Position numbers and translations under genes: made by a program | In this document: piece by piece, positions 5,852 to 64,000 of the stretch | Position numbering within the stretch: the first letter of the stretch is position 1 | Layout: each line of letters begins with the position of its first letter | Notes under the pieces: generated by a model | Told to the model about the DNA's origin: nothing | The model's database searches: none | The model's input: only the letters and a program-made list of their open reading frames with translations | Assembly (NCBI GenBank): GCA_963676395.1 | Contig: OY781066.1 | Coordinates: 1,696,001 to 1,760,000 of the forward strand | DNA from: a bacterium | GTDB lineage: Bacteria > Fidelibacterota > Fidelibacteria > Fidelibacterales > Fidelibacteraceae | Direction: 5' to 3' | Length of the DNA: 64,000 nt

Positions 5852-5875
5852 AAATGCAAGTCATGGGGGTGACGG

Positions 5876-6235
5876 ATGCGTGATTTTAAGAAATATGATA
5901 TTTGGCATAAAAGTCATAATTTTGCAATGAAAGTATATTGTGAAACAAAGCTTTTTCCTAAAGATGAGACCTATGGATTAAGGAGCCAATTAAGAAGGGC
6001 GGCAACATCAATACCTACTAATATTGTAGAAGGTGCCGGTCGAGATGGCGACAAGCAGTTTGCACGATTTGTCGATATCGCTATGGCATCGGCATGTGAA
6101 TGCGAGTATTTACTTATATTGATACAAGAGTTAAACTATATTTCTGATAAAAATTATAGAGACCTTGAAAAGAAAGTCGTTGAAATCAAGAAAATGCTTG
6201 CAACTTTATATAAAAGATTGAAACTTGATAGCTGA
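5876..6235 (+). CDS. Four helix bundle protein (TIGR02436 / 23S rRNA IVP family)
   Basis: W.KSH...VY..T..FP..E.YGL.SQLRRAA.SIP.NI.EG..R and A..SA.E..Y signature. Confidence 0.95.
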   Translation: MRDFKKYDIWHKSHNFAMKVYCETKLFPKDETYGLRSQLRRAATSIPTNIVEGAGRDGDKQFARFVDIAMASACECEYLLILIQELNYISDKNYRDLEKKVVEIKKMLATLYKRLKLDS

Positions 6236-6326
6236 TAGCTGATAGCTGATAGCTGATAGCTGATAGCTGATAGCTGATAGCTGATAGCTGATAGCTGATA
6301 GCTGATAGCTGATAGCTGATAGCTGA
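6226..6326 (+). repeat. Perfect heptamer tandem repeat (TGATAGC)x14 + TGA
   Basis: Counted directly; supplies the stop codon of the four helix bundle gene. Confidence 0.98.
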
Positions 6327-53430: not shown

Positions 53431-54600
53431 ATGAAACTTCCAAAGAACGTAATTAAAAATCCTATGTACATATACATGACATTATTGGTGGTTGTGGCTA
53501 CGGCAGGGCACCAGATGTGGAGAACATTATTAAATAATTATGCCGTAGACCAAGTGGGTTTAAGTGGATTCCATATGGGGTTTATTCAATCACTGCGTGA
53601 AGTTCCTGGCTTTTTGACTTTCTTGGTAGTATATGTTTTGCTGATATTTAAGGAACATCGTCTATCTGCATGGTCGGTGATCTTGTTTGGGGCGGGTATT
53701 ATTTGTACCGGTTTGTTTCCTTCTTTTTCCGGTTTAATGGTAACCACTTTTTTCATGTCTTTAGGATTTCATTATTTTGAAACGACACGCCAATCTTTAG
53801 TTTTACAATATTTTAATAAGCAAGAATCACCGCTGGTCCTTGCAAATTGGCGTAGTTTAAGCGCTTTGGCAAATATTTCTATCGGTGCATTAATATGGTT
53901 GGTGTTTAAATTTACTGATCTACCTATGTCTTGGGCTTATACTATCATGGGATTGATGATCATTGCTGTGGGTGTCTATTCTTTAACAAAGGATCCTGCG
54001 GACAAAGATCTGCCAATTCAGCATAAAAAGATCGTTATCAGGAAAAAATATTGGCTGTTTTATGTTCTTAATTTTCTTAGCGGTGCCCGAAGACAAATAT
54101 TCGTTGTTTTTGCGGTATTTATGTTGGTTGAAAAGTATGCTTTTTCTGTGTGGGAAATATCTGCCTTGTTTGTATTGAATAATGTTATTACATGGTTGGT
54201 GAGCCCGTATATTGGTAAAGCGATCAATCACTATGGTGAAAAGAGAATGTTAAGTTTTGAATATATTTCATTGATACTCATTTTTATTGGTTATGCCTTT
54301 GTCAGTCAAAAATATTTTATCGTAGCACTTTATGTACTTGATCATATATTTTTTAATTTTTCCATCGGTATTCATACCTTTTTTCAAAAAATGGCAGATC
54401 CCAAAGATATAGCTCCTTCAATGGCAGTTTCTTTTTCAATTAATCATATCTCTGCGGTTGTTATTCCCGCTATTGGTGGAATGTTATGGATGTTGAATTG
54501 GCGGATACCTTTTATTGCAGGTGCCTGTTTGGCTGTTTTGTCACTGATTTTTGTTCAATATATTAAATTACCTGCTCCGGATCTATCGAATAAAATATAA
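53431..54600 (+). CDS. MFS transporter
   Basis: About 12 TM helices; REVPGFL, YWLFY.L.FLSGARRQIF motifs. Confidence 0.85.
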   Translation: MKLPKNVIKNPMYIYMTLLVVVATAGHQMWRTLLNNYAVDQVGLSGFHMGFIQSLREVPGFLTFLVVYVLLIFKEHRLSAWSVILFGAGIICTGLFPSFSGLMVTTFFMSLGFHYFETTRQSLVLQYFNKQESPLVLANWRSLSALANISIGALIWLVFKFTDLPMSWAYTIMGLMIIAVGVYSLTKDPADKDLPIQHKKIVIRKKYWLFYVLNFLSGARRQIFVVFAVFMLVEKYAFSVWEISALFVLNNVITWLVSPYIGKAINHYGEKRMLSFEYISLILIFIGYAFVSQKYFIVALYVLDHIFFNFSIGIHTFFQKMADPKDIAPSMAVSFSINHISAVVIPAIGGMLWMLNWRIPFIAGACLAVLSLIFVQYIKLPAPDLSNKI

Positions 54601-54753
54601 GTAAAGAAATAATAAAACGACAAAAGCGATTACATGCCAAATAAGTCGTCGCTTTGGGCGACGTTCTTCGTGCACCTTGCGAAAATGTAAGCGTTTATCA
54701 TCTTCGGGTTCTTTAACCACCCAGCGTGAGCGGCGTACGGGTTTTTGTGGCAT
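54583..54753 (-). CDS. Small basic protein with C-terminal TM helix (56 aa), not in ORF track
   Basis: MPQKPVRRSRWVVKEPEDDKRLHFRKVHEERRPKRRLIWHVIAFVVLLFLYLYFIR*; RBS AAGGAG. Confidence 0.7.
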   Translation of the reverse strand: MPQKPVRRSRWVVKEPEDDKRLHFRKVHEERRPKRRLIWHVIAFVVLLFLYLYFIR

Positions 54754-55002
54754 GCTTTCTCCTTGTCTTATGCGGTAAATTCCGTAGAAAACGGCGATAT
54801 GTCAAGCAATATTATTTTTCTCATATAGTATCCGGGTGATGTATCGTATGTCATACATATATTTTATAATCATGTTAATCTTGTTCTTGCGGGCTCCCAT
54901 AGGAATGACAGTGTTAAAATTTTTTCATTTAAAAAATATAATTTTCTTTGCATTAAAATAACACTTGGTTATATTGCCAAATGAGAAAACGAAAGGGTTC
55001 GA

Positions 55003-55299
55003 ATGGACATTAAGGAAAAGCGAAGATTAGAAGAACTGACAGAGATATTCAAGGCTCTGGCGCATCCTGCCAGACTGTGGATGGTTGAGCAGTTGTTTGA
55101 GCAAGAAAAATGTGTTTGTGAATTCGTTGATGTCCTCCAACTGGATTTTTCAACCGTGTCCAAACATTTATCCGTTTTGAAACATGCCCATGTGATCGAA
55201 GATGAAAAGAGAGGAAAGAATGTATATTATTCTCTCAGAACAAAATGTTTACCACATATTATTGAATGCCTTAAAAATAATGCTAAACTGGAGAACTGA
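55003..55299 (+). CDS. ArsR/SmtB family transcriptional regulator
   Basis: FKALAHPARL, EKCVCE, STVSKHL..L, RGK.VYY. Confidence 0.93.
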   Translation: MDIKEKRRLEELTEIFKALAHPARLWMVEQLFEQEKCVCEFVDVLQLDFSTVSKHLSVLKHAHVIEDEKRGKNVYYSLRTKCLPHIIECLKNNAKLEN

Positions 55300-56282
55300 T
55301 GTTAAAGGTATTTAAATGGCTTGCCGATATCATTGTGTACAATTGGTTGAAGATGGAAGAAGCTTCACGTTGGGCAGGTGCTTTGCATTTTTTTATAGAA
55401 GATATTACTAAGATATTTTTTTTGTTGGTGATCATGATCTATGTGATCGGTTTATTGAGAGCAACACTGAATACTGAGCGTATTCGCATTTTTCTGCAGG
55501 GAAAAAGTCGTTTCTTTGGTTATTTTCTGGGAGCCGGCTTTGGTGCGGTAACTCCTTTCTGTTCATGTTCAAGTATCCCGCTTTTTCTTGGCTTTACTCA
55601 GGCGAGGATTCCTATTGGGATCACCATGTCTTTCCTGATTACTTCTCCGGTCATCAATGAAGTGGCCGTGGTTTTGCTTGGAGGATTGTTAGGCGTAAAA
55701 TTTATGATCATTTATATCGGGATCGGTATTCTGGTCGGTGTGATTGGCGGTATCTTTATTGATGCAATAAAAGCGGAGCGATTTTTAATGCCAATTGCCG
55801 AAAGTATGCGGAGTTCCGAAACAGTAATGCCAGATACAGAAAATTCACAGCCAAAAAAAATGACGTTTAAAAAACGCCACGCATTCGCCAAAGGCGAATT
55901 GAATGAAATTCTTGGAAGAGTTTGGAAGTGGGTATTTATCGGTGTTGGTCTGGGGGCCTTTCTTCATGGTTTTGTCCCCGAAGAATTTATTGTTAATAAT
56001 CTAGGTTCAGGACAATGGTGGAGTGTGCCGGTAGCTGTATTGCTGGGTATACCTCTTTATTCAAATGCAAGTGGTATGATCCCCATTGCTGAAACCCTTC
56101 TTGCTAAAGGTTTACCGGTTGGTACAACCCTTGCATTTATGATGAGTACCGTGGCGGCCTCGTTTCCGGAATTTGTTATATTAAAACAGGTCATGAAACC
56201 AAAATTGTTGGTGATATTTTTTGCTATGCTATTGGTTATGTTTACTTTTGTAGGACTTGTATTAAATGTGATACCATTTTAG
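55299..56282 (+). CDS. ArsP/DUF318 family permease
   Basis: TPFCSCSSIPLF, FLITSP, GIPLY.N..G.IP, GTTLAFMM. Confidence 0.9.
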   Translation: MLKVFKWLADIIVYNWLKMEEASRWAGALHFFIEDITKIFFLLVIMIYVIGLLRATLNTERIRIFLQGKSRFFGYFLGAGFGAVTPFCSCSSIPLFLGFTQARIPIGITMSFLITSPVINEVAVVLLGGLLGVKFMIIYIGIGILVGVIGGIFIDAIKAERFLMPIAESMRSSETVMPDTENSQPKKMTFKKRHAFAKGELNEILGRVWKWVFIGVGLGAFLHGFVPEEFIVNNLGSGQWWSVPVAVLLGIPLYSNASGMIPIAETLLAKGLPVGTTLAFMMSTVAASFPEFVILKQVMKPKLLVIFFAMLLVMFTFVGLVLNVIPF

Positions 56283-56293
56283 AGGAGATTAAA

Positions 56294-56530
56294 ATGAAAA
56301 TTCAAGTATTGGGAACAGGATGTTCCAAATGTAATCAATTGATGAGTCGTACCGTAAATGCGGTCAATGAATTGGGCTTGGATATTGAGGTTGAAAAGGT
56401 CTCGGATATCAATGAGATCGTGGCGTTTGGAATTATGACCATTCCGGCTTTGGTTGTGGATGGAAAAGTACTGGTTCGTGGGAACGTCCCCAAACTCGAT
56501 GATTTAAAAGAATTAATAACGAAAGGATAG
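56294..56530 (+). CDS. Small thioredoxin-like redox-active disulfide protein (MTH895/Thioredoxin_3 type)
   Basis: MKIQVLGTGCSKC, EKV.D..EI...G.M..PALVVDG. Confidence 0.92.
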   Translation: MKIQVLGTGCSKCNQLMSRTVNAVNELGLDIEVEKVSDINEIVAFGIMTIPALVVDGKVLVRGNVPKLDDLKELITKG

Positions 56531-56532
56531 AT

Positions 56533-56966
56533 ATGAAAAAAAGAACAGGATTATTTACGCTGATGACAGTTGCTGTGCTTATCGCCGCATTGTTCCTCAC
56601 AGGATGTTCAGAAAAGAAAGCTGATGTTAGTGCAAGTGCAAAAAAAACTTCAGTCGCGACTGCCTCAGAAAAGCTTCCAAGAATGGTTGATTTTGGGCTC
56701 CTCATTGTCCCCCGTGTCGACAAATGATCCCCGAATTAGAAGAATTACATGAAAAATATGCGCATGCTTTTAATTTGGTAAAGATCAATACCTCTTTGGA
56801 AGAAAATCAAATGGCTGCCCGTGCCAATGATATTAAATATATTCCCACTCAGATATTCTATGATGAAAACGGAAAACAATTATTTCGTCATGTAGGATAT
56901 ATGTCCAAACAGGATATTTTGAGCAAATGGGAAGAGTTAGGTTATACTATGAAAGCTCAAGATTAG
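56533..56966 (+). pseudogene. Thioredoxin-family lipoprotein split by a 1-nt frameshift
   Basis: Lipobox LTGC...KLPRMVDF, then frame change at TTTTGGG (56691-56697) to APHCPPCRQMIPELEEL...IPTQIFYD..GK.LFRH.G. Confidence 0.85.
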
Positions 56967-56994
56967 TATATTTAACTTTGTTTGTGAGATTGAG

Positions 56995-57022
56995 GAGGCG
57001 CAACTTGTTGCGTCTCTTTTTT
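56995..57022. terminator. Terminator of the ArsR operon
   Basis: GAGGCGCAAC-tt-GTTGCGTCTC then T-run. Confidence 0.75.
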
Positions 57023-58616
57023 ATTGTTTTGATAATATTTCATCTGCTGCATACCAACCGGTCATAATGGCAATGGGGATCCCCGCGGGTGTATAGGTCC
57101 ATTGCCCGGCTTGGTAGATGTCTTTGATTGGTGTTTTTATTGCTCGCGGCATGCCGAAAATTTTGTTTTCTACCGGGACTTTCTCAATATAAGACCAACC
57201 TGTTATAGCACCTTCGGAGCTTCCTCCGATATGTTCTATGGTCAATGGCGTAGCTGAAAATTTAAATAAAATTTTCTCTTTGAGTCCGGGATATATCGAA
57301 GCATTCAATACTTGAATAATGTTATCTTCAGTTGCCGAAATAAATTCTTTTAACCAGCCGGCTTTTTTGATCTTTTTAATTAATTCATATTCCATAAAGA
57401 AATTGATGATCACTCCGCTTTGTCCTTTTGGCGCTAAGGCAGGATCACGATATGCCGGAATGGATATTTCATAAGTATCTCGCTCGCATGATGTTTTTAA
57501 CCAAGTGAGAACATTTTCTTTTTTGATGGAGTCGAAATTCTTGATCAAATCTTGTACATTATCATATCGGGCCGCTCCCAATCCTTGTGAAGAAGGGGTG
57601 TAGAAGAAATGCCCATGATTCTTTTTGGCAAAGTAATCTATCGGGAGATCAGTTGCTAAGTATAGACTGAATACAGAGTCACCACCGCGCTTGGATAAAA
57701 GTTTTTTTGATATCTTTGATACTTTGTTTTTCGTATTGCTATCAAGAGTGCCGGTATCAAGATGTTTATATAGGAATTTGGTATCTCCACACCAAATCAA
57801 TTGATCATAACTGTAACTTTTACCGTTCTTGTCTGTGATAAGCTTTTTGTTTGCATCAATATTTTCAATAAAAGTTTCATATGAGATGCTTCCACCAAAT
57901 TCAATGATCTTTTCGGCAAGTTTTTGGGTTAATTGCCCTGTACCACCTCTAGGATATATATAATCACCATAAACGTAATAATAACCCAAGGCAAAGAATA
58001 CATTGGTGTGATAAAAGAAATGTTGACAAATAATATCTATCAAAGAACTATCATTCGTGAACTTGGTTAAATAATCTTCAATAGGCTCGGTCATTCGCCC
58101 CATTCGCCATACGGCGGGAAGAAAATTCCGCATCTGTGGGATCAATTCCAAAAACAGATATTTTTTATCTTTCTTGAAATCTCTAAAGATCGGATTATCA
58201 AAACCGTAGATACCGTGCATAGAGCGCATGATTCTTTTAATGACTTTGAATATTCTATTGATGCCTTTTTCTTCATTGGGAAAAAGCTTGATCAATAGAT
58301 TCTGATATTGTTTCATACTATCCTTTGATGTGAAATCAATGATCGTATCGGCAATACCAAGGGAAACGGGACTCTCAAGAAGGTCCATGTCTATTCCAAG
58401 TTCTCGGATCATTGGACGGATCACTCCGGAATTTTCTATGGAGCGCGCTCCGCTGTCAAATGTAAATCCTTCTCTTTCAAATGAGGTTAATAAGCCGCCG
58501 GGAACAGAGTTTTTATCGATTAATAGAACATTTTTTCCGGCCTTTGATAAGTAAGCAGCGGCCGTAAGCCCGGCTAATCCGGCACCTACAATAATAATCT
58601 TATTCTGTGAATGCAT
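57021..58616 (-). CDS. FAD-dependent oxidoreductase, phytoene desaturase superfamily
   Basis: IVGAGLAGL, PGG..SF.REGF.FDSG, YP.GG, P.LAP.G, TP.T, G...GW, AGQW. Confidence 0.88.
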   Translation of the reverse strand: MHSQNKIIIVGAGLAGLTAAAYLSKAGKNVLLIDKNSVPGGLLTSFEREGFTFDSGARSIENSGVIRPMIRELGIDMDLLESPVSLGIADTIIDFTSKDSMKQYQNLLIKLFPNEEKGINRIFKVIKRIMRSMHGIYGFDNPIFRDFKKDKKYLFLELIPQMRNFLPAVWRMGRMTEPIEDYLTKFTNDSSLIDIICQHFFYHTNVFFALGYYYVYGDYIYPRGGTGQLTQKLAEKIIEFGGSISYETFIENIDANKKLITDKNGKSYSYDQLIWCGDTKFLYKHLDTGTLDSNTKNKVSKISKKLLSKRGGDSVFSLYLATDLPIDYFAKKNHGHFFYTPSSQGLGAARYDNVQDLIKNFDSIKKENVLTWLKTSCERDTYEISIPAYRDPALAPKGQSGVIINFFMEYELIKKIKKAGWLKEFISATEDNIIQVLNASIYPGLKEKILFKFSATPLTIEHIGGSSEGAITGWSYIEKVPVENKIFGMPRAIKTPIKDIYQAGQWTYTPAGIPIAIMTGWYAADEILSKQ

Positions 58617-58639
58617 GAAGCCTCTTTAAAGAAGATGCA

Positions 58640-59266
58640 TTATTGTTTTCTTAGAACATTATTATAGCCAGCACAAATAATGGTATCTTGTCCCTCGGTT
58701 CTTACCGCCCATTCTTGACCATATTGAGTTTCTATTACATGAGGAATGTAAGATTTATTCCAGGCTGTAGGTGAGTGTGCTGCCCGGTAGACAGAATCTT
58801 CAGTAAATGTATATATTTGTCCACGAGTATTGCTCCAAGAACCTACAATATCATCGACCAGGAAATCAATACGAGGAACAACAGCATCACTTAAATAGAT
58901 CTTAGTGATTTCGCTATCGTTTTGACTGTAAAGAATGTAACTGCTGGTATCTTTAATCTCAATATATGTGAACTTACCATTACTGAACCATGGTGTGCTG
59001 GTAAATGTTATAACATCATCTACTATTTCCCATGAGAAAAAATCAGATTCACATAGAGGGGGATCCCAAAAACCACCTTCACCAGTACCATCATCCCAAA
59101 ATTGAAGATATAATTCGGTTAAAGGAGGGTTTGGATCAGGGGAGCCCGGATCAGGTAGTGCAAAACGATAGCAACCGCTTGGAACTGTTGCTTCGGGTAC
59201 TTGAATACAAGATACAAGTGTGAGTAGCGCGATGAAAATTATGAATGGCAATAGTTTCTGTTTCAT
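58640..59266 (-). CDS. Hypothetical lipoprotein
   Basis: Lipobox LVSC; beta-rich, IVGSWSN motif reminiscent of lipocalin-like domains. Confidence 0.7.
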   Translation of the reverse strand: MKQKLLPFIIFIALLTLVSCIQVPEATVPSGCYRFALPDPGSPDPNPPLTELYLQFWDDGTGEGGFWDPPLCESDFFSWEIVDDVITFTSTPWFSNGKFTYIEIKDTSSYILYSQNDSEITKIYLSDAVVPRIDFLVDDIVGSWSNTRGQIYTFTEDSVYRAAHSPTAWNKSYIPHVIETQYGQEWAVRTEGQDTIICAGYNNVLRKQ

Positions 59267-59285
59267 GTTATTCCTTTATGAAAAA

Positions 59286-60893
59286 TTAGTTCAAAACTGA
59301 GAAATCTGCAAAAACTACAAAAATACTTATAATAATAGCAAGAATAATTCCTGCTGCCCATTTTGCACCTTTCCAGGGAGTCATATCAACGGCTTTGACA
59401 TCTTCTTGAATAAATTCTGTCTCTCTGGGGTTTGTCTCTCCCATAATTAACATCGTGATGATAAGGTAAAGAAAGACAAGTCCAAGAAAATGGTATTCAT
59501 GCATCTGTGCCACGATCTTATCAAAAGGTGGGACGAAATAGCCGATTGCAATAATGATAATACCGCCAAGAAGTCCAAAATTCGCGGCGCGCTGAGGGAC
59601 GCGTTTGGTTAACATTCCGGTTAAAACAACCGCAAAGATCGGAATAAAGTAGATACCATTCATTTTTTGCAAATAGGAATAAATAGACCCTGTTTTTGCC
59701 AGTAAGGGTGCGACAACAACGGCAAAGATTGCCAGGATAATTCCAAAGATCTTTCCTGATGATACGATTTGTTTTTCGCTGGCTGTTTTGTTGAGTTTTT
59801 CTTTATAAATACCCAAAGAGAAAAGTGTACAGGTAGAGTTTAATGCTGAGTTAAATGATGAAAGAATAGCACCTAGCATGGCGGCGGCAAAAAAGCCTGC
59901 CAAAGGTGTGGGTAGTACTTCATTGACCAACATTCCGTATGCATGGTCAGCCTTGATGCCTTGTCCGGCAAACAGAGCAAAAGCAATAATACCGGGAAGA
60001 ACCAAATAGAGTGGCCCTAAAAGCTTTAATCCACCGGTAAGTAAGACACCTTTTTGACCTTCGGACAAAGAGCTGGCAGCAAAAGTTCTTTGAATGATCT
60101 GCTGATTGGTTGTCCAGTAGAAAAAGTTAAGTAACATCACACCGGAGAAGACGGTGGAGAAGGGGACCGATGTTTCAGGGCCTCCGATAGAGTTCATTTT
60201 TTCGGGTACCAGTTCAGCAAGATTACGAATACCCTCTAAAAAGCTACCATCGCCAAGCATTTTAAAAGCAAAAAATGTAATGAGGAAACCACCTGTAAGT
60301 AATCCGATGCCATTTAAAGTATCCGAAACCGCAACGGTACGCAGGCCTCCGGTAAGAGCATAAAGTGAACCTATTACACCTACAGAGATTACGACAAGTA
60401 CAAGAACGGTTCCATAATCCTGAATGCCAAGCAATGTCTGCAGATCAAGAATACCTATCAAACCAACCGCTCCCGTATAAAGGATAATAGGCAATAGGAT
60501 CAAGGCATAGGCTGAGAGCATAATAATATTTGTAATGAATTCACTGGTTTTACCAAAACGGATGCTTAAATATTCGGGTACCGTGGTAACACCGCTTTTA
60601 AGAAAGCGTGGTAAAAAGAATAAGGCCATGGCAAGAAGAGCAAGCACCGCGCCGACTTCCCATACCATGACGGCAAAACCATCGGTAAAGGCTGAGCCGT
60701 TAAGTCCAACCATTTGCTCGGTTGATAAATTGGTCAGCAATAATGAACCTGCGATTAGCGGAAAGGATAAATTGCGTCCCGCCAGAAAATAACCGTTTTT
60801 CGAGCTCATATCCTGCTTGCGTGTGAAGAACCATGTTAACACAGCAACAAGAAGAGTGAAAAATAAGAATGAAATGATGATGAAGAAGTTCAC
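59286..60893 (-). CDS. Sodium:solute symporter (SSS, YidK-like)
   Basis: GYFLAGR, SLLLTNLSTEQ.VG, GGLR.VA.SD, YW.TNQ.IIQR, GAILSSFNS.LNS. Confidence 0.93.
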   Translation of the reverse strand: MNFFIIISFLFFTLLVAVLTWFFTRKQDMSSKNGYFLAGRNLSFPLIAGSLLLTNLSTEQMVGLNGSAFTDGFAVMVWEVGAVLALLAMALFFLPRFLKSGVTTVPEYLSIRFGKTSEFITNIIMLSAYALILLPIILYTGAVGLIGILDLQTLLGIQDYGTVLVLVVISVGVIGSLYALTGGLRTVAVSDTLNGIGLLTGGFLITFFAFKMLGDGSFLEGIRNLAELVPEKMNSIGGPETSVPFSTVFSGVMLLNFFYWTTNQQIIQRTFAASSLSEGQKGVLLTGGLKLLGPLYLVLPGIIAFALFAGQGIKADHAYGMLVNEVLPTPLAGFFAAAMLGAILSSFNSALNSTCTLFSLGIYKEKLNKTASEKQIVSSGKIFGIILAIFAVVVAPLLAKTGSIYSYLQKMNGIYFIPIFAVVLTGMLTKRVPQRAANFGLLGGIIIIAIGYFVPPFDKIVAQMHEYHFLGLVFLYLIITMLIMGETNPRETEFIQEDVKAVDMTPWKGAKWAAGIILAIIISIFVVFADFSVLN

Positions 60894-60915
60894 GTAGATT
60901 TCTCCTTAATTGTTA

Positions 60916-60933
60916 AGATTAAGATTAAGTAGA
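60916..60933. repeat. Left arm of 18-bp perfect inverted repeat (AAGATT-type hexamers)
   Basis: AGATTAAGATTAAGTAGA; exact reverse complement of 61406-61423. Confidence 0.9.
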
Positions 60934-60971
60934 AATGAGATTTTAGTTTTAAGTTTGTTTTTTCGCATGAA

Positions 60972-61352
60972 TTATACAGAATAATTTTTAAGTGTTTTTA
61001 TAATTTTATTTAGACTATGAACAACCTTTTGTATTTTAGATTCATAGTTGTTTACTGTTTCTTTTGTAAAATATTTTACTTTATTTCCGTATATCAAGTG
61101 ACTTTGCAGTTCACAAGCGGAACCTCTACTGTATCTGTAGAAATTCAACTTATCTTTTAGATGTTCTCTTCCAAAAGCTTCGGCGATATTTGCTGATATG
61201 CTATTGGCACTTCTTCTCATTTGAGAAGCAAGTGCATAATCCTCGACTTTTGGTAGCTTTTCAGTTAAATTATATATCTCAACGGATATATCAATTGATT
61301 CTTGCCATACAGGAAAATCCTTAAAGGATTTATATCCTTTGATTTGAGTCAT
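60972..61352 (-). CDS. Four helix bundle protein (TIGR02436 / 23S rRNA IVP family)
   Basis: SFKD..VWQ.S...IY..T..LP..E.Y.L.SQMRRSA.SI.ANIAE..GR, RGSA.ELQS.L. Confidence 0.95.
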   Translation of the reverse strand: MTQIKGYKSFKDFPVWQESIDISVEIYNLTEKLPKVEDYALASQMRRSANSISANIAEAFGREHLKDKLNFYRYSRGSACELQSHLIYGNKVKYFTKETVNNYESKIQKVVHSLNKIIKTLKNYSV

Positions 61353-61405
61353 AACGTCCCCCGCTATTTTATCAAATTATACCAAACTTAATCTTATTAC
61401 TTAAA

Positions 61406-61423
61406 TCTACTTAATCTTAATCT
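61406..61423. repeat. Right arm of 18-bp perfect inverted repeat
   Basis: TCTACTTAATCTTAATCT; imperfect complementarity continues inward to about 61383/60957. Confidence 0.9.
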
Positions 61424-61434
61424 CGACAATCAAT

Positions 61435-61917
61435 TTACTCATCTGTTTTCTCAATATTTTTCACTGAAATCAACGGCGGTCCCGGAGAAAATACCTTTTT
61501 TACCAAAGGTAAAATGCCTGATTCGGATTTTTCAATTTCTACTTCGGCTTCTTTGAGAACGCCTGCCCACATGGTGGCAAACCCCGGATGTTTTTCGAAC
61601 ATGATATGAATGGCTTTATCATAAACGTAAAGAACACGCAATTTATCGCGACCGGGACGTTCTTTTAGTGAAGATATGGTAGATTTTAAGTTTTCGATGG
61701 TCTTTTGTTTATTTGCTAAATCATTATTGAGCGCTTCGTTACCTTTTGCAGTAATATTCATGGTGGTGTTCAGATGACTTTTAAGTTGGGAATTTTCTTC
61801 TACGAATGCTTTTAATTTTTGTCTGTTTTTAATTCGCCCTTGAAGCCAAACTACAATACATAATAATAGACCAACACCTAGTCCGATCAATAATGATGAA
61901 AATGAAAAATTATCCAT
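61435..61917 (-). CDS. Hypothetical membrane-anchored coiled-coil protein
   Basis: N-terminal TM then heptad-rich segment; AAGGA RBS. Confidence 0.75.
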   Translation of the reverse strand: MDNFSFSSLLIGLGVGLLLCIVVWLQGRIKNRQKLKAFVEENSQLKSHLNTTMNITAKGNEALNNDLANKQKTIENLKSTISSLKERPGRDKLRVLYVYDKAIHIMFEKHPGFATMWAGVLKEAEVEIEKSESGILPLVKKVFSPGPPLISVKNIEKTDE

Positions 61918-62060
61918 AAGCCATTCCTTTATATATGTTTAACACTGTAAGATAAGGCAAAATTGTATATGATTCAAGATGTAAGTCGCCAGTTCTTTCA
62001 AGCTAGTTAAAACTATTTTAATAGCATCCGTTTTTTTGTTTGAATTTTAGCTGTATTTTC

Positions 62061-62146
62061 TTATTCGGAACGATTCTTAATAAAAGGCTTGCATTGTAAG
62101 ATAATCTATTGTATACTTGTGTTGTAATCGGAATGATTCCGAATAA
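62061..62146 (+). promoter_or_regulatory. sigma70 promoter flanked by two Fur/PerR-type palindromes
   Basis: TTATTCGGAA-cga-TTCTTAATAA (62061-62083), TTGCAT-N17-TATACT (62089-62117), GTAATCGGAA-tga-TTCCGAATAA (62124-62146). Confidence 0.75.
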
Positions 62147-62156
62147 GGAAAAGCAA

Positions 62157-62561
62157 ATGAAAGATCAGACATACAGAAATACAAAGCAGAGAAAGAGAAT
62201 ACTGGAAGTCTTGAGTATGACAGATATACATCCTACGGCTTCTTGGGTTTACGATCAGTTAAAACCGGAATTTCCCTCTTTGAGTTTAGGAACGGTTTAT
62301 CGCAATCTTGCCATTCTCGAGGAACAGGGACTATTGATAAAACTGCATTCAGGCTCTACCTTTGATCGTTATGATGCAATGGTATCGCCACACGCTCACT
62401 TTGTATGTAAGGTTTGTGGTGGTCTATTTGATATCAAAGACATGGAACTTGGCGAGCTGAAGCATTCTGCAGAAATAAAAACACGCCACCATATTGAAGA
62501 TGTTAAATTGACTTATACGGGAGTCTGTGATGATTGCTTAAATAAAGAGATGAAAGATTAA
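62157..62561 (+). CDS. perR: Fur family regulator, PerR-like
   Basis: T.QR..IL, HPTA, SLGTVYRNL, RYD...H.HFVC..C, GVC..C; adjacent to a peroxiredoxin; start reset to MKDQ. Confidence 0.85.
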   Translation: MKDQTYRNTKQRKRILEVLSMTDIHPTASWVYDQLKPEFPSLSLGTVYRNLAILEEQGLLIKLHSGSTFDRYDAMVSPHAHFVCKVCGGLFDIKDMELGELKHSAEIKTRHHIEDVKLTYTGVCDDCLNKEMKD

Positions 62562-62583
62562 TTAAAAACAAGAGGTAAATACA

Positions 62584-63267
62584 ATGGAAGAACAAGTAAA
62601 AGAAACTTACGCAATGCCATTAATCGGGGACAGCGCACCGGCATTTACAGCCAATACAACTCAGGGAACGATTAATTTTCCTGAAGATTATAAAGGTAAA
62701 TGGGTTGTATTGTTCAGTCACCCAGCTGATTTCACACCGGTATGTACAACCGAATTTATGACTTTTGCCAGCATGAAAGAAGAATTTGCTGCATTGAATA
62801 CCGAACTAATAGGTCTTTCAATTGACAGCTTATACGCTCACATTGCCTGGTTGCGTACGATCAAAGAAAAAATTGAATACAAAGGCATGAAAGATGTGGA
62901 CGTTACTTTTCCGGTGATCGAAGATCTTAAAATGGACGTAGCCAAGAAATTCGGTATGGTCCAACCCAATGCTTCAACAACGCAAGCGGTTCGTGCCGTT
63001 TTTGTGATCGATCCGGACGGTAAGGTCCAGGCCATTATTTATTACCCGCTCTCGAATGGCCGGAATATGGATGAGATCAAACGACTGATCCTGGCTTTGC
63101 AGAAAACACGTAAGGACGGTGTAGCCACACCCGCCAACTGGCAGCCCGGTGATGACGTGATCATTCCTCCTCCAGGTTCATGCGGTGCTGCAAAAGATCG
63201 CGTTGAGTCAGAAGAAGAAGGAAAGTACTGCCTTGATTGGTTCATGTGCCTGAAGAAAGACAAGTAA
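62584..63267 (+). CDS. Peroxiredoxin (Prx6 subfamily)
   Basis: FSHPADFTPVCTTE, VRAVF.IDP, GRN..EI.R, TPANW.PG, CLDWFMC. Confidence 0.95.
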   Translation: MEEQVKETYAMPLIGDSAPAFTANTTQGTINFPEDYKGKWVVLFSHPADFTPVCTTEFMTFASMKEEFAALNTELIGLSIDSLYAHIAWLRTIKEKIEYKGMKDVDVTFPVIEDLKMDVAKKFGMVQPNASTTQAVRAVFVIDPDGKVQAIIYYPLSNGRNMDEIKRLILALQKTRKDGVATPANWQPGDDVIIPPPGSCGAAKDRVESEEEGKYCLDWFMCLKKDK

Positions 63268-63300
63268 CATAATAAACACTAACATTTCGTTTTGCTCATT

Positions 63301-63330
63301 AAAAAAGGGTTGTTAAAAAACAACCCTTTT
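63301..63330 (+). terminator. Terminator after peroxiredoxin
   Basis: AAAAGGGTTG-ttaaaaaa-CAACCCTTTT. Confidence 0.75.
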
Positions 63331-63473
63331 CTTAATACAAAACTAACTTTTAAATTTTTTAAAATTTTGTTATAATATTTCGGATATTTGAGAGAGAGTA
63401 TTTCATCATTCCTGTTGAATGGTTCCTCCTCCAATATAAGTAAAAAAGAAAATCTGTATCTAAAACCGGAGAG

Positions 63474-64000
63474 ATGATGAAAAAGTTATTTGTTATTTTG
63501 TTATTAATTGGTCTGACACCACTTTTTGCGAACAGTTCGTTGGAATTCGATGGCATTGATGATTATGTCCAATTATCGTCCATATTGAACATAGGCAGCA
63601 GTAGCTCTACGATCGAAGCCTGGGTAAAGATCCCCACGGTGGGAACAGGTAATTTGATTTCGGATGAAAGAGTGGGGGTCATTATCGGGAATTGGGGTGT
63701 CGATGCAAATAACGTTGCATTGGAAGTCTATTCGGCAGGACAGTTACGATACTTCTGGAATAACGGTGAATTCGATCTGAAAGGATCAAAAGATCTCCGT
63801 GATGGAAGCTGGCATCATGTTGCTGCGGTAAGAGATAAAGTTAATGACTTGATTGTTATGTACGTTGACGGCGTTTTGGAATTTGATAATTCAAGTGCCG
63901 GAGCCGATTTCAACATTGTCCAAACCCATCGTATCGGTAGGGATAATCGAGGTGGAACACCGATCTCTTTTCATGGAGAGATCGATGAAGTGCGAGTATG
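63474..64000 (+). CDS. Secreted LamG/concanavalin-like domain protein (partial, runs off window)
   Basis: Manual translation: MMKKLFVILLLIGLTPLFANSSLEFDGIDDYV...TIEAWVK...DGSWHHVAAV...YVDG...IG...FHGEIDEVRV; GGAG RBS. Confidence 0.88.
   Translation, partial: MMKKLFVILLLIGLTPLFANSSLEFDGIDDYVQLSSILNIGSSSSTIEAWVKIPTVGTGNLISDERVGVIIGNWGVDANNVALEVYSAGQLRYFWNNGEFDLKGSKDLRDGSWHHVAAVRDKVNDLIVMYVDGVLEFDNSSAGADFNIVQTHRIGRDNRGGTPISFHGEIDEVRV

Follow-up and report, generated by a model that had tools for sequence, protein, structure and literature searches.

A four-helix-bundle gene between inverted hexamer arrays: a candidate insertion cassette outside rRNA

Results

Organization of the locus

The window (the whole 64,000-nt stretch analyzed, from a bacterium of the Fidelibacteraceae) includes three co-oriented genes on the minus strand, the middle one of which lies between two repeat arms. 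The features are listed in the direction of transcription.

61435..61917 (-), upstream host gene, 160 aa, without a Pfam or NCBIfam match (profile search)
61381..61433 (-), 5′ arm (purine/G-type), a degenerate hexamer array; core 61406-61423, stem part 61406-61433
61355..61362 (-), GGGGGACG, ribosome-binding-site-like motif just 5′ of the ATG (sequence)
60972..61352 (-), four-helix-bundle gene, TIGR02436 / PF05635, 126 aa (profile matches, AlphaFold model)
60906..60958 (-), 3′ arm (pyrimidine/C-type); core 60916-60933, stem part 60906-60933
60902..60907 (-), AAGGAG of the transporter, Shine-Dalgarno-like, adjoining the stem (sequence; putative function)
59286..60893 (-), downstream host gene, solute:sodium symporter (SSS), NF007790 / PF00474 (profile search)

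The cassette occupies the entire gap from the stop codon of the upstream gene to the ribosome-binding site (RBS) that follows. The 18-nt perfect inverted repeat that a first-pass annotation had seen around this gene is present: AGATTAAGATTAAGTAGA occupies 60916-60933, and 61406-61423 carries its exact reverse complement. The co-oriented neighbors that the annotation had named (a hypothetical gene and an SSS transporter) were also found. The PF05635 gene is the sole ORF of the cassette and no transposase is encoded there, in agreement with the earlier view that the element has no recombinase of its own. The 18-mer has no other copy in the 2.34-Mb genome, which contains a total of six perfect inverted repeats of at least 18 nt with a spacer of 200-800 nt.

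Folding of the minus strand (60880-61450), a check suggested with the annotation, gave -136.9 kcal/mol (z = -7.58), an energy that none of 100 shuffles reached, with 61433-61406 pairing with 60906-60933 as 8 bp, one C·A mismatch, and 19 bp. Two G·U pairs are included in this 27-bp stem, and the whole arms (53 nt) are 72% complementary. Starting 1 nt past the upstream stop codon, the stem extends through the first two A's of AAGGAG, the transporter RBS next to which the downstream arm had been placed. The annotation had also extended the pairing by about 24 nt inward; the perfect core held, but the inward 25 nt pair loosely and the stem runs outward, so the firmest extension of the 18-nt repeat is the outward one. 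Chance or an assembly artefact as the source of the repeat was ruled out by the fold z-score and the uniqueness of the 18-mer; an artefact is also countered by orthologues in three other genomes and by one spanning contig, which may be the window's own source. No joined form without the cassette was seen among the assembled contigs, which are silent on expression.

Elsewhere in the window, inverted and direct AT-rich boxes (TTATTCGGAACGATTCTTA-like) at 62045-62162 lie upstream of a Fur/PerR-family gene and are probably its operator; the gene that follows is presumably peroxiredoxin-like. Outside the window, at C1:1609394-1610040 of the same genome, another 18-nt perfect inverted repeat encloses a gene that we take to be TetR-like; its arms are likely operator sites.

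The encoded protein

The 126-aa protein scored 115.7 bits against TIGR02436 (cut-off 24) and 116.1 bits against PF05635 (cut-off 33.8), and its best named relatives (65-68% identity) come from Ca. Neomarinimicrobiota MAGs, a phylum to which the window itself probably belongs. The AlphaFold model (pLDDT 92.9) consists of helices 14-30, 35-61, 65-91, and 97-125. Foldseek matched it to 2GSC (TM 0.84), 2RLD (TM 0.78), and Avd 4DWL (TM 0.78; rmsd 1.8 Å, 10% identity), and the structural kinship to Avd that the annotation cited for the family is upheld in the predicted fold. Entries 2GSC and 2RLD contain five chains each, and by homology to them the protein would be a pentameric ring like Avd. Among the three intact orthologues at this site, dN was 0.17-0.27 and dS was saturated; the gene is judged to be under purifying selection.

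A GGACG motif near the start codon was found in 36 of 59 family genes of this genome or the same genus, spanning protein clades. Among the controls, it was found in 0 of 21 other relatives, 2 of 73 cross-phylum genes, and 10 of 1422 long ORFs of the genome. A GGACG-type motif before the start is thus typical of TIGR02436/PF05635 genes in this genus only; it presumably resembles the GGANG of CsrA/RsmE sites and could be a site for a host regulator.

Filled and empty junctions in related genomes

The upstream 160-aa gene is present in 17 of the 22 genomes of the genus and adjoins the transporter in 8. Four of these eight junctions are filled (G000, the focal genome, G004, G011, and G006) and four are empty, with gaps of 35, 40, 40, and 138 nt. 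The search for empty sites in relatives thus found that the presence of the gene is not fixed and that the cassette is a discrete unit, as had been proposed. In G006, the gene is deleted except for approximately 20 codons and the arms are kept. The three intact proteins form one clade (100/98), and the hosts with a filled junction do not (AU p = 0.008), by which a single gain without loss is rejected. The simplest history would be a single ancient gain, with clean loss or recombination on at least one occasion. The insertion at this junction would be old, vertically inherited, and in the course of being lost. No target-site duplication was visible at the empty junctions, which are too diverged to read one, and no near-identical copies were found elsewhere in the genome, where the 18-mer does not recur and paralogues are only distantly related.

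In one run X2 contig, from a near-identical relative with 3 differences in 801 nt of the transporter, the 3′ half of the cassette gene is divergent; in the same contig (depth 6.5), another 179 letters replace window positions 60882-61062, and the affected stretch as a whole is 60882-61163. This single low-depth contig is only a hint of allele exchange.

Repeat arms of other family members

PF05635 matches numbered 10 in the focal genome (several broken) and 1-18 in each of 36 of the 41 genomes searched (203 matches). We took 102 loci (10 own, 3 site orthologues, and 89 of the best-scoring matches), and found 99 ORF hits; 81 were kept as near-full length with full flanks and 18 were dropped. 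Complementarity between a locus's own flanks exceeded the 99th percentile of mismatched flanks at 42 of the 81 loci and the 95th percentile at 60, whereas 3 of 200 other small ORFs exceeded the 99th. The proposed survey of family flanks therefore showed complementary arms to be enriched, and inverted repeat arms are present around most family members sampled. Repeat periods in this set were mostly 7 and 8, and the units tracked the protein tree. The median distance from stop codon to arm was 7 nt (n = 58). Similarity to 23S rRNA was found at 0 of 175 family loci, and 11 pattern matches in viral contigs included no relative.

Downstream of a second family gene of the window (approximately 5875-6320; C1:1701876-1702320) lies a long perfect array of TGATAGC heptamers; the upstream arm of this gene is only weak. 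Family genes also cluster (G020:C12, G005:C1, G044:C9, G045:C25), with at least seven on one 41-kb contig; at least one clustered gene (L104) sits between nucleotide-sugar genes, presumably rfbB-rfbA-like, hinting that polysaccharide loci are hot spots for the family.

The hexamer clade

Five period-6-armed proteins from three different junctions formed a long-branch clade (support 100/100 in a smaller careful tree). A protein-only scan of 185,579 genomes with the alignment of these five proteins yielded 156 relatives, and we retained the best 80, which represent 78 loci. A periodic signal was present in 59 upstream and 59 downstream flanks of these loci (19 of 78 unscored on each side), and in 56 of the 59 on either side the best period was 6. 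The profile of 963 units was A-G-(G76/A24)-(T74)-(T71/A18)-(A48/G40), approximately AG-R-Y-W-R. With 30 further loci from five cross-phylum genomes, and after removal of 4 edge hits and of 12 rows that were duplicated or short, the set comprised 177 proteins. The cross-phylum loci were chosen by two peptide patterns of the clade, whereby residues 9-16 and 36-44 were fixed; clade-specific polar residues outside these patterns are K68, Y72, R76, H85, Y88, N115, and K116.

Inside the clade (78 rows), 68 loci had period 6, one had period 7, one had period 9, and 8 were unscored. Outside it (99 rows), 47 had period 7, 33 had period 8, 2 had period 10, one had period 6 (with a different hexamer), and 16 were unscored. 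Period 6 was therefore found in 68 of 70 scored members versus 1 of 83 scored nonmembers, a contrast in which the clade counts as one evolutionary event and not as 68 independent ones. Support for the clade was 0.63 with FastTree and 98 (SH-aLRT) with IQ-TREE (175 rows). The period label changed 3 times on the tree, compared with 49.8 times when shuffled (0 of 500 as few). Five genomes of other phyla carry hexamer-clade loci and loci of other periods side by side, so the repeat period is not a host trait.

Clade members span about ten phyla, with a median identity of 55% (minimum 40%), and 57 distinct flank classes are found among the 78 members. The three newly found clade genes all had the predicted hexamers (4 of 4 when one repeat locus is included). 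The hexamer clade keeps one unit at many different sites in many phyla, and the other clades have 7-base or 8-base units. A G-arm at the 5′ side with a C-arm at the 3′ side was found at 44 of 76 clade loci, and the reverse arrangement alone was found at one; 32 of 76 did not have one of the two arms by the arm pattern used. In some clade loci (L131, L157, L167, L175, L177, L154, L302), a whole hairpin, G-arm then C-arm, takes the place of the single arm on one or both sides of the gene.

The family gene faces the same way as its upstream neighbor at 135 of the 151 called loci (158 examined), as would be expected for a gene without its own promoter, and both neighbors are co-oriented with it at 114 of 158. 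This orientation, a stem that touches the downstream RBS, and purifying selection would all suit a regulatory module, in which protein and hairpin tune the downstream gene by pausing or, presumably, by controlling access to its RBS or covering a C-rich loading site for Rho, and cassettes spread because they are useful in variable operons. We consider a regulatory module very unlikely: the downstream genes are unrelated (47 classes among the 78 clade members) and lie on the opposite strand at 25 of 152 family loci, and clean loss and pseudogenes are common.

Pairing between the arms

The first-pass annotation held that the arms loop out the gene in the transcript. As an mRNA intervening sequence, the arms would pair in the transcript and RNase III would free the gene's RNA, as for rRNA intervening sequences (IVSs); the stem would bring the upstream stop codon next to the downstream RBS, so that the insertion is tolerated. 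The focal 27-bp stem (z = -7.58) is about as long as the RNase III-cut 28-bp stem described in passages of PMC4990558 on Coxiella, and an RNase III gene is present in the genome. In all four filled orthologues, the stem fills the distance between the upstream stop codon and the downstream RBS, and the arm sequences differ. Empty gaps are just 35-40 nt, so the closeness of arms to stop codons (median 7 nt) is partly trivial.

The focal arms mirror each other's irregularities: they match each other over 18 nt, compared with at most 15 nt for the 77 other clade arms. The own partner arm was best in 3 of 4 site orthologues, own partners within the clade matched over 13.4 nt versus 10.9 nt when shuffled (0 of 5000), and across all 132 nearest-neighbor pairs the own partner arm won 89 to 41 over the arm of the relative. 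Some element-specific pairing or copying therefore exists. However, in the 77 nearest-neighbor pairs with at least 65% identity, the own partner's advantage was gone (38 to 37). Cross-arm match was 16, 21, 28, 33, and 39 for protein identities of <40, 40-49, 50-59, 60-69, and ≥70%, respectively; synonymous sites are saturated at approximately 65% protein identity.

Isolated transition mismatches in the arms did not show a G·U excess. The clade gave 33 G·U to 44 A·C, with 50 of 78 loci scorable, and loci outside it gave 45 G·U to 35 A·C (63 of 99); the totals at the 113 of 177 loci with a scorable stem are 78 and 79. The control of 104 terminator-like hairpins, found strand-symmetrically in the focal genome, gave 27 G·U to 3 A·C, a ratio that the T-tail filter may inflate; the filter does not affect the U·G versus C·A count of 13 to 1. 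Another measure of G·U asymmetry (50:44) gave no support for an RNA stem, and per-position sign tests found no asymmetry (p 0.10-0.53). Transversion mismatches were as frequent as transitions.

The fixed G-arm/C-arm polarity does not by itself point to RNA, because an inverted pair reads alike from both strands. Together with the 32 of 76 clade loci without one arm by pattern, these counts make an mRNA intervening sequence unlikely in our view, and the earlier idea of arms kept as an mRNA stem is not supported on two points, the G·U bias and the own-partner advantage at ≥65% identity. From sequence alone, we read the arms primarily as arrays of a motif, to which local copying or a degree of pairing has been added.

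Arrays without the gene

A strict three-unit hexamer pattern occurred in 53 of the 121 genomes of the phylum (with a reversed-pattern control near zero) and the clade gene in 7 of the 121, many of which are fragmented MAGs. That the protein is present whenever arrays are present was thus rejected. Separate genome-wide hexamer scans were threshold-sensitive, and each recovered only one of the two known pairs. At 20 hand-picked array sites in 8 genomes, no clade gene or opposite arm was found nearby; several of these sites are strings of mixed repeat types before a start codon, and some are within coding sequence. Cassettes are therefore a minority of array sites.

The focal genome has a gene-less hexamer hairpin between gyrA and yggS (C1:1571743-1571806). 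Among 21 loci of this junction placed in a tree, 16 are empty, several of them reading TAAATG; the other 5 have hairpins, which belong to three unit types and sit exactly between TAA and ATG. The five hairpins may come from one gain (AU p = 0.475), in which case units can change without an adjacent gene. No family gene was found there in any of the 23 loci examined, and an origin as an emptied full cassette was rejected. Long dispersed heptamer arrays were also observed at 23 intergenic sites of the focal genome (e.g., C1:266368, 514947, 740514, 1511862, 1610069); their units are like those of family arms, and they are mostly unpaired and gene-less.

Slippage-grown simple repeats that are ignored by the protein and inherited with a gene of other function would also produce arrays far commoner than the gene, some of them inside coding sequence, and unit changes such as those at gyrA-yggS. 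Such neutral hitch-hiking seems distinctly improbable to us, because proteins from about ten phyla, 40-55% identical, keep one unit while synonymous sites saturate, the inward-facing polarity is fixed, and all three newly found clade genes had the hexamers predicted for them.

Discussion

The cassette resembles the ORF-bearing IVSs of 23S rRNA, which encode S23p / 23S_rRNA_IVP and occur in Coxiella burnetii and Leptospira: the protein family is the same, the gene is in the loop of a 27-28-bp terminal stem, the size is similar, and the stem has short tandem repeats (GACAGAT heptamers in Coxiella, period 6 here). The IVS of Coxiella burnetii (helix 45) is described, in the passages of PMC4990558 that concern it, as having a 28-bp stem cut by RNase III, heptamer repeats, and an ORF that is probably unexpressed and decaying, whereas the cassette ORF has a good RBS and is under purifying selection. 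CPR rRNA insertions are reported in 10.1101/2024.02.27.582315, and PMC10053308 notes the PF05635-Avd homology; jointly with PMC8700078, these sources cover the homology, strain-specific copies, and scattered rRNA insertion sites. Unlike an IVS, the cassette lies between protein-coding genes (C1:1756906-1757433), approximately 1.3 Mb from the single 23S gene (C1:458917-461894).

REP/REPIN-RAYT systems and MITEs combine one gene set between inverted short repeats with numerous copies of the repeats elsewhere in the genome that have no gene. The cassette is like REP/REPIN-RAYT in having one gene between inverted short repeats and gene-less arrays elsewhere, and its terminal inverted repeats are an IS/MITE-like trait. 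Unlike RAYT, its protein is not an HUH/Y1 transposase and has no known catalytic site, and its repeats are tandem 6-8-mers, whereas REPs are palindromic and carry a tetranucleotide foot. The focal genome has four genes for Y1 (RAYT/IS200-like) transposases, all located elsewhere (C1:1828266, 200267, 1669874, 1871407), and two of these genes have REP-like inverted repeats around them.

The fold is shared with Avd of diversity-generating retroelements (DGRs; 4DWL, 8UB7), the pentamer of which is described in parts of 10.1101/2023.10.23.563531 as binding a stem-loop through flipped bases between protomers. Unlike DGR Avd, the cassette gene is flanked by periodic arms, and no match to a reverse transcriptase (PF00078) was found in the 95%-complete focal genome; none was encoded by the five ORFs scanned at window positions 54000-64000. 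In layout, the cassette is IVS-like, but it is neither an rRNA IVS nor a DGR nor an IS.

Dispersed heptamers of Xanthomonas (GGGAATC) and Nostoc are G-rich after stops and C-rich before starts and form many inverted pairs; in its passages on these repeats, PMC4692102 treats them as possible quadruplexes and draws no link to the protein family. An entry in its supplement has a GGGAATC array 6 nt after bccP that overlaps the start of XCC0516. XCC0516 is the gene of structure 2GSC. These heptamers share the polarity of the cassette arms, the units of which have no G-runs. Our literature search, covering subscription journals only in small part, found no gene-plus-arms cassette outside rRNA and no clade-specific units, and the focal cassette belongs to a widespread, apparently unpublished kind.

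The explanation that we favor, to which we give an even chance, is an enzyme-less insertion cassette with clade-specific arm arrays that are self-recognized by the encoded Avd-like ring. The cassette would be a four-helix-bundle gene between two inward-facing short-repeat arrays, and the ring (a pentamer by homology) would bind its own arrays, each subunit taking up one unit or a few. The arrays would serve as end signals that are strand-symmetric, comparable to the binding-site arrays at transposon ends and the REPs around a RAYT gene, and would not be an mRNA stem under selection. Movement would need a host or trans-acting enzyme, loss of the gene would leave hairpins or single arrays behind, and the transcript may still fold into the 27-bp hairpin, with RNase III cutting as a side effect. 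The period that follows the clade even where both kinds share a genome, the cross-arm match that rises with identity, the variety of flank classes, the fixed arm polarity, the absence of a G·U excess, the clade-specific polar residues, nucleic-acid binding by Avd, and the filled and empty junctions, one with the gene deleted between retained arms, are the evidence for this explanation. Several findings count against recognition arrays: units would also follow the tree if gene and arms were simply inherited together, arrays are in 53 and the gene in 7 of 121 genomes, none of the 20 hand-picked array sites had the gene or an opposite arm nearby, the focal arms match each other better than other clade arms and own partners win over all nearest-neighbor pairs, no target-site duplication is seen at empty junctions, and co-orientation with the upstream gene (135 of 151) fits a role in the transcript.

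A wider proposal is tentative and, in our estimate, somewhat unlikely to hold in full: IVP/Avd-like pentamers would be the specificity factors of transposase-less mobile cassettes, each recognizing a lineage-specific 6-base, 7-base, or 8-base repeat, with a recruited host or trans-acting enzyme copying or inserting the unit at stop-start junctions and arms being left behind. To our knowledge, no function has been assigned to the TIGR02436/PF05635 family in approximately 30 years, and we know of no source of the dispersed 6-8-mer repeats of bacteria. The clade-specific unit offers a direct test with the 126-aa protein, AG-R-Y-W-R arrays, 7-mer and 8-mer arrays as built-in negative controls, and candidate specificity residues. 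If the proposal is true, then the family would be the source of the dispersed bacterial 6-8-mer repeats, with rRNA IVSs and DGR Avd as offshoots, and a ring protein that reads lineage-specific short repeats would represent a new nucleic-acid code and would explain the origin of Avd.
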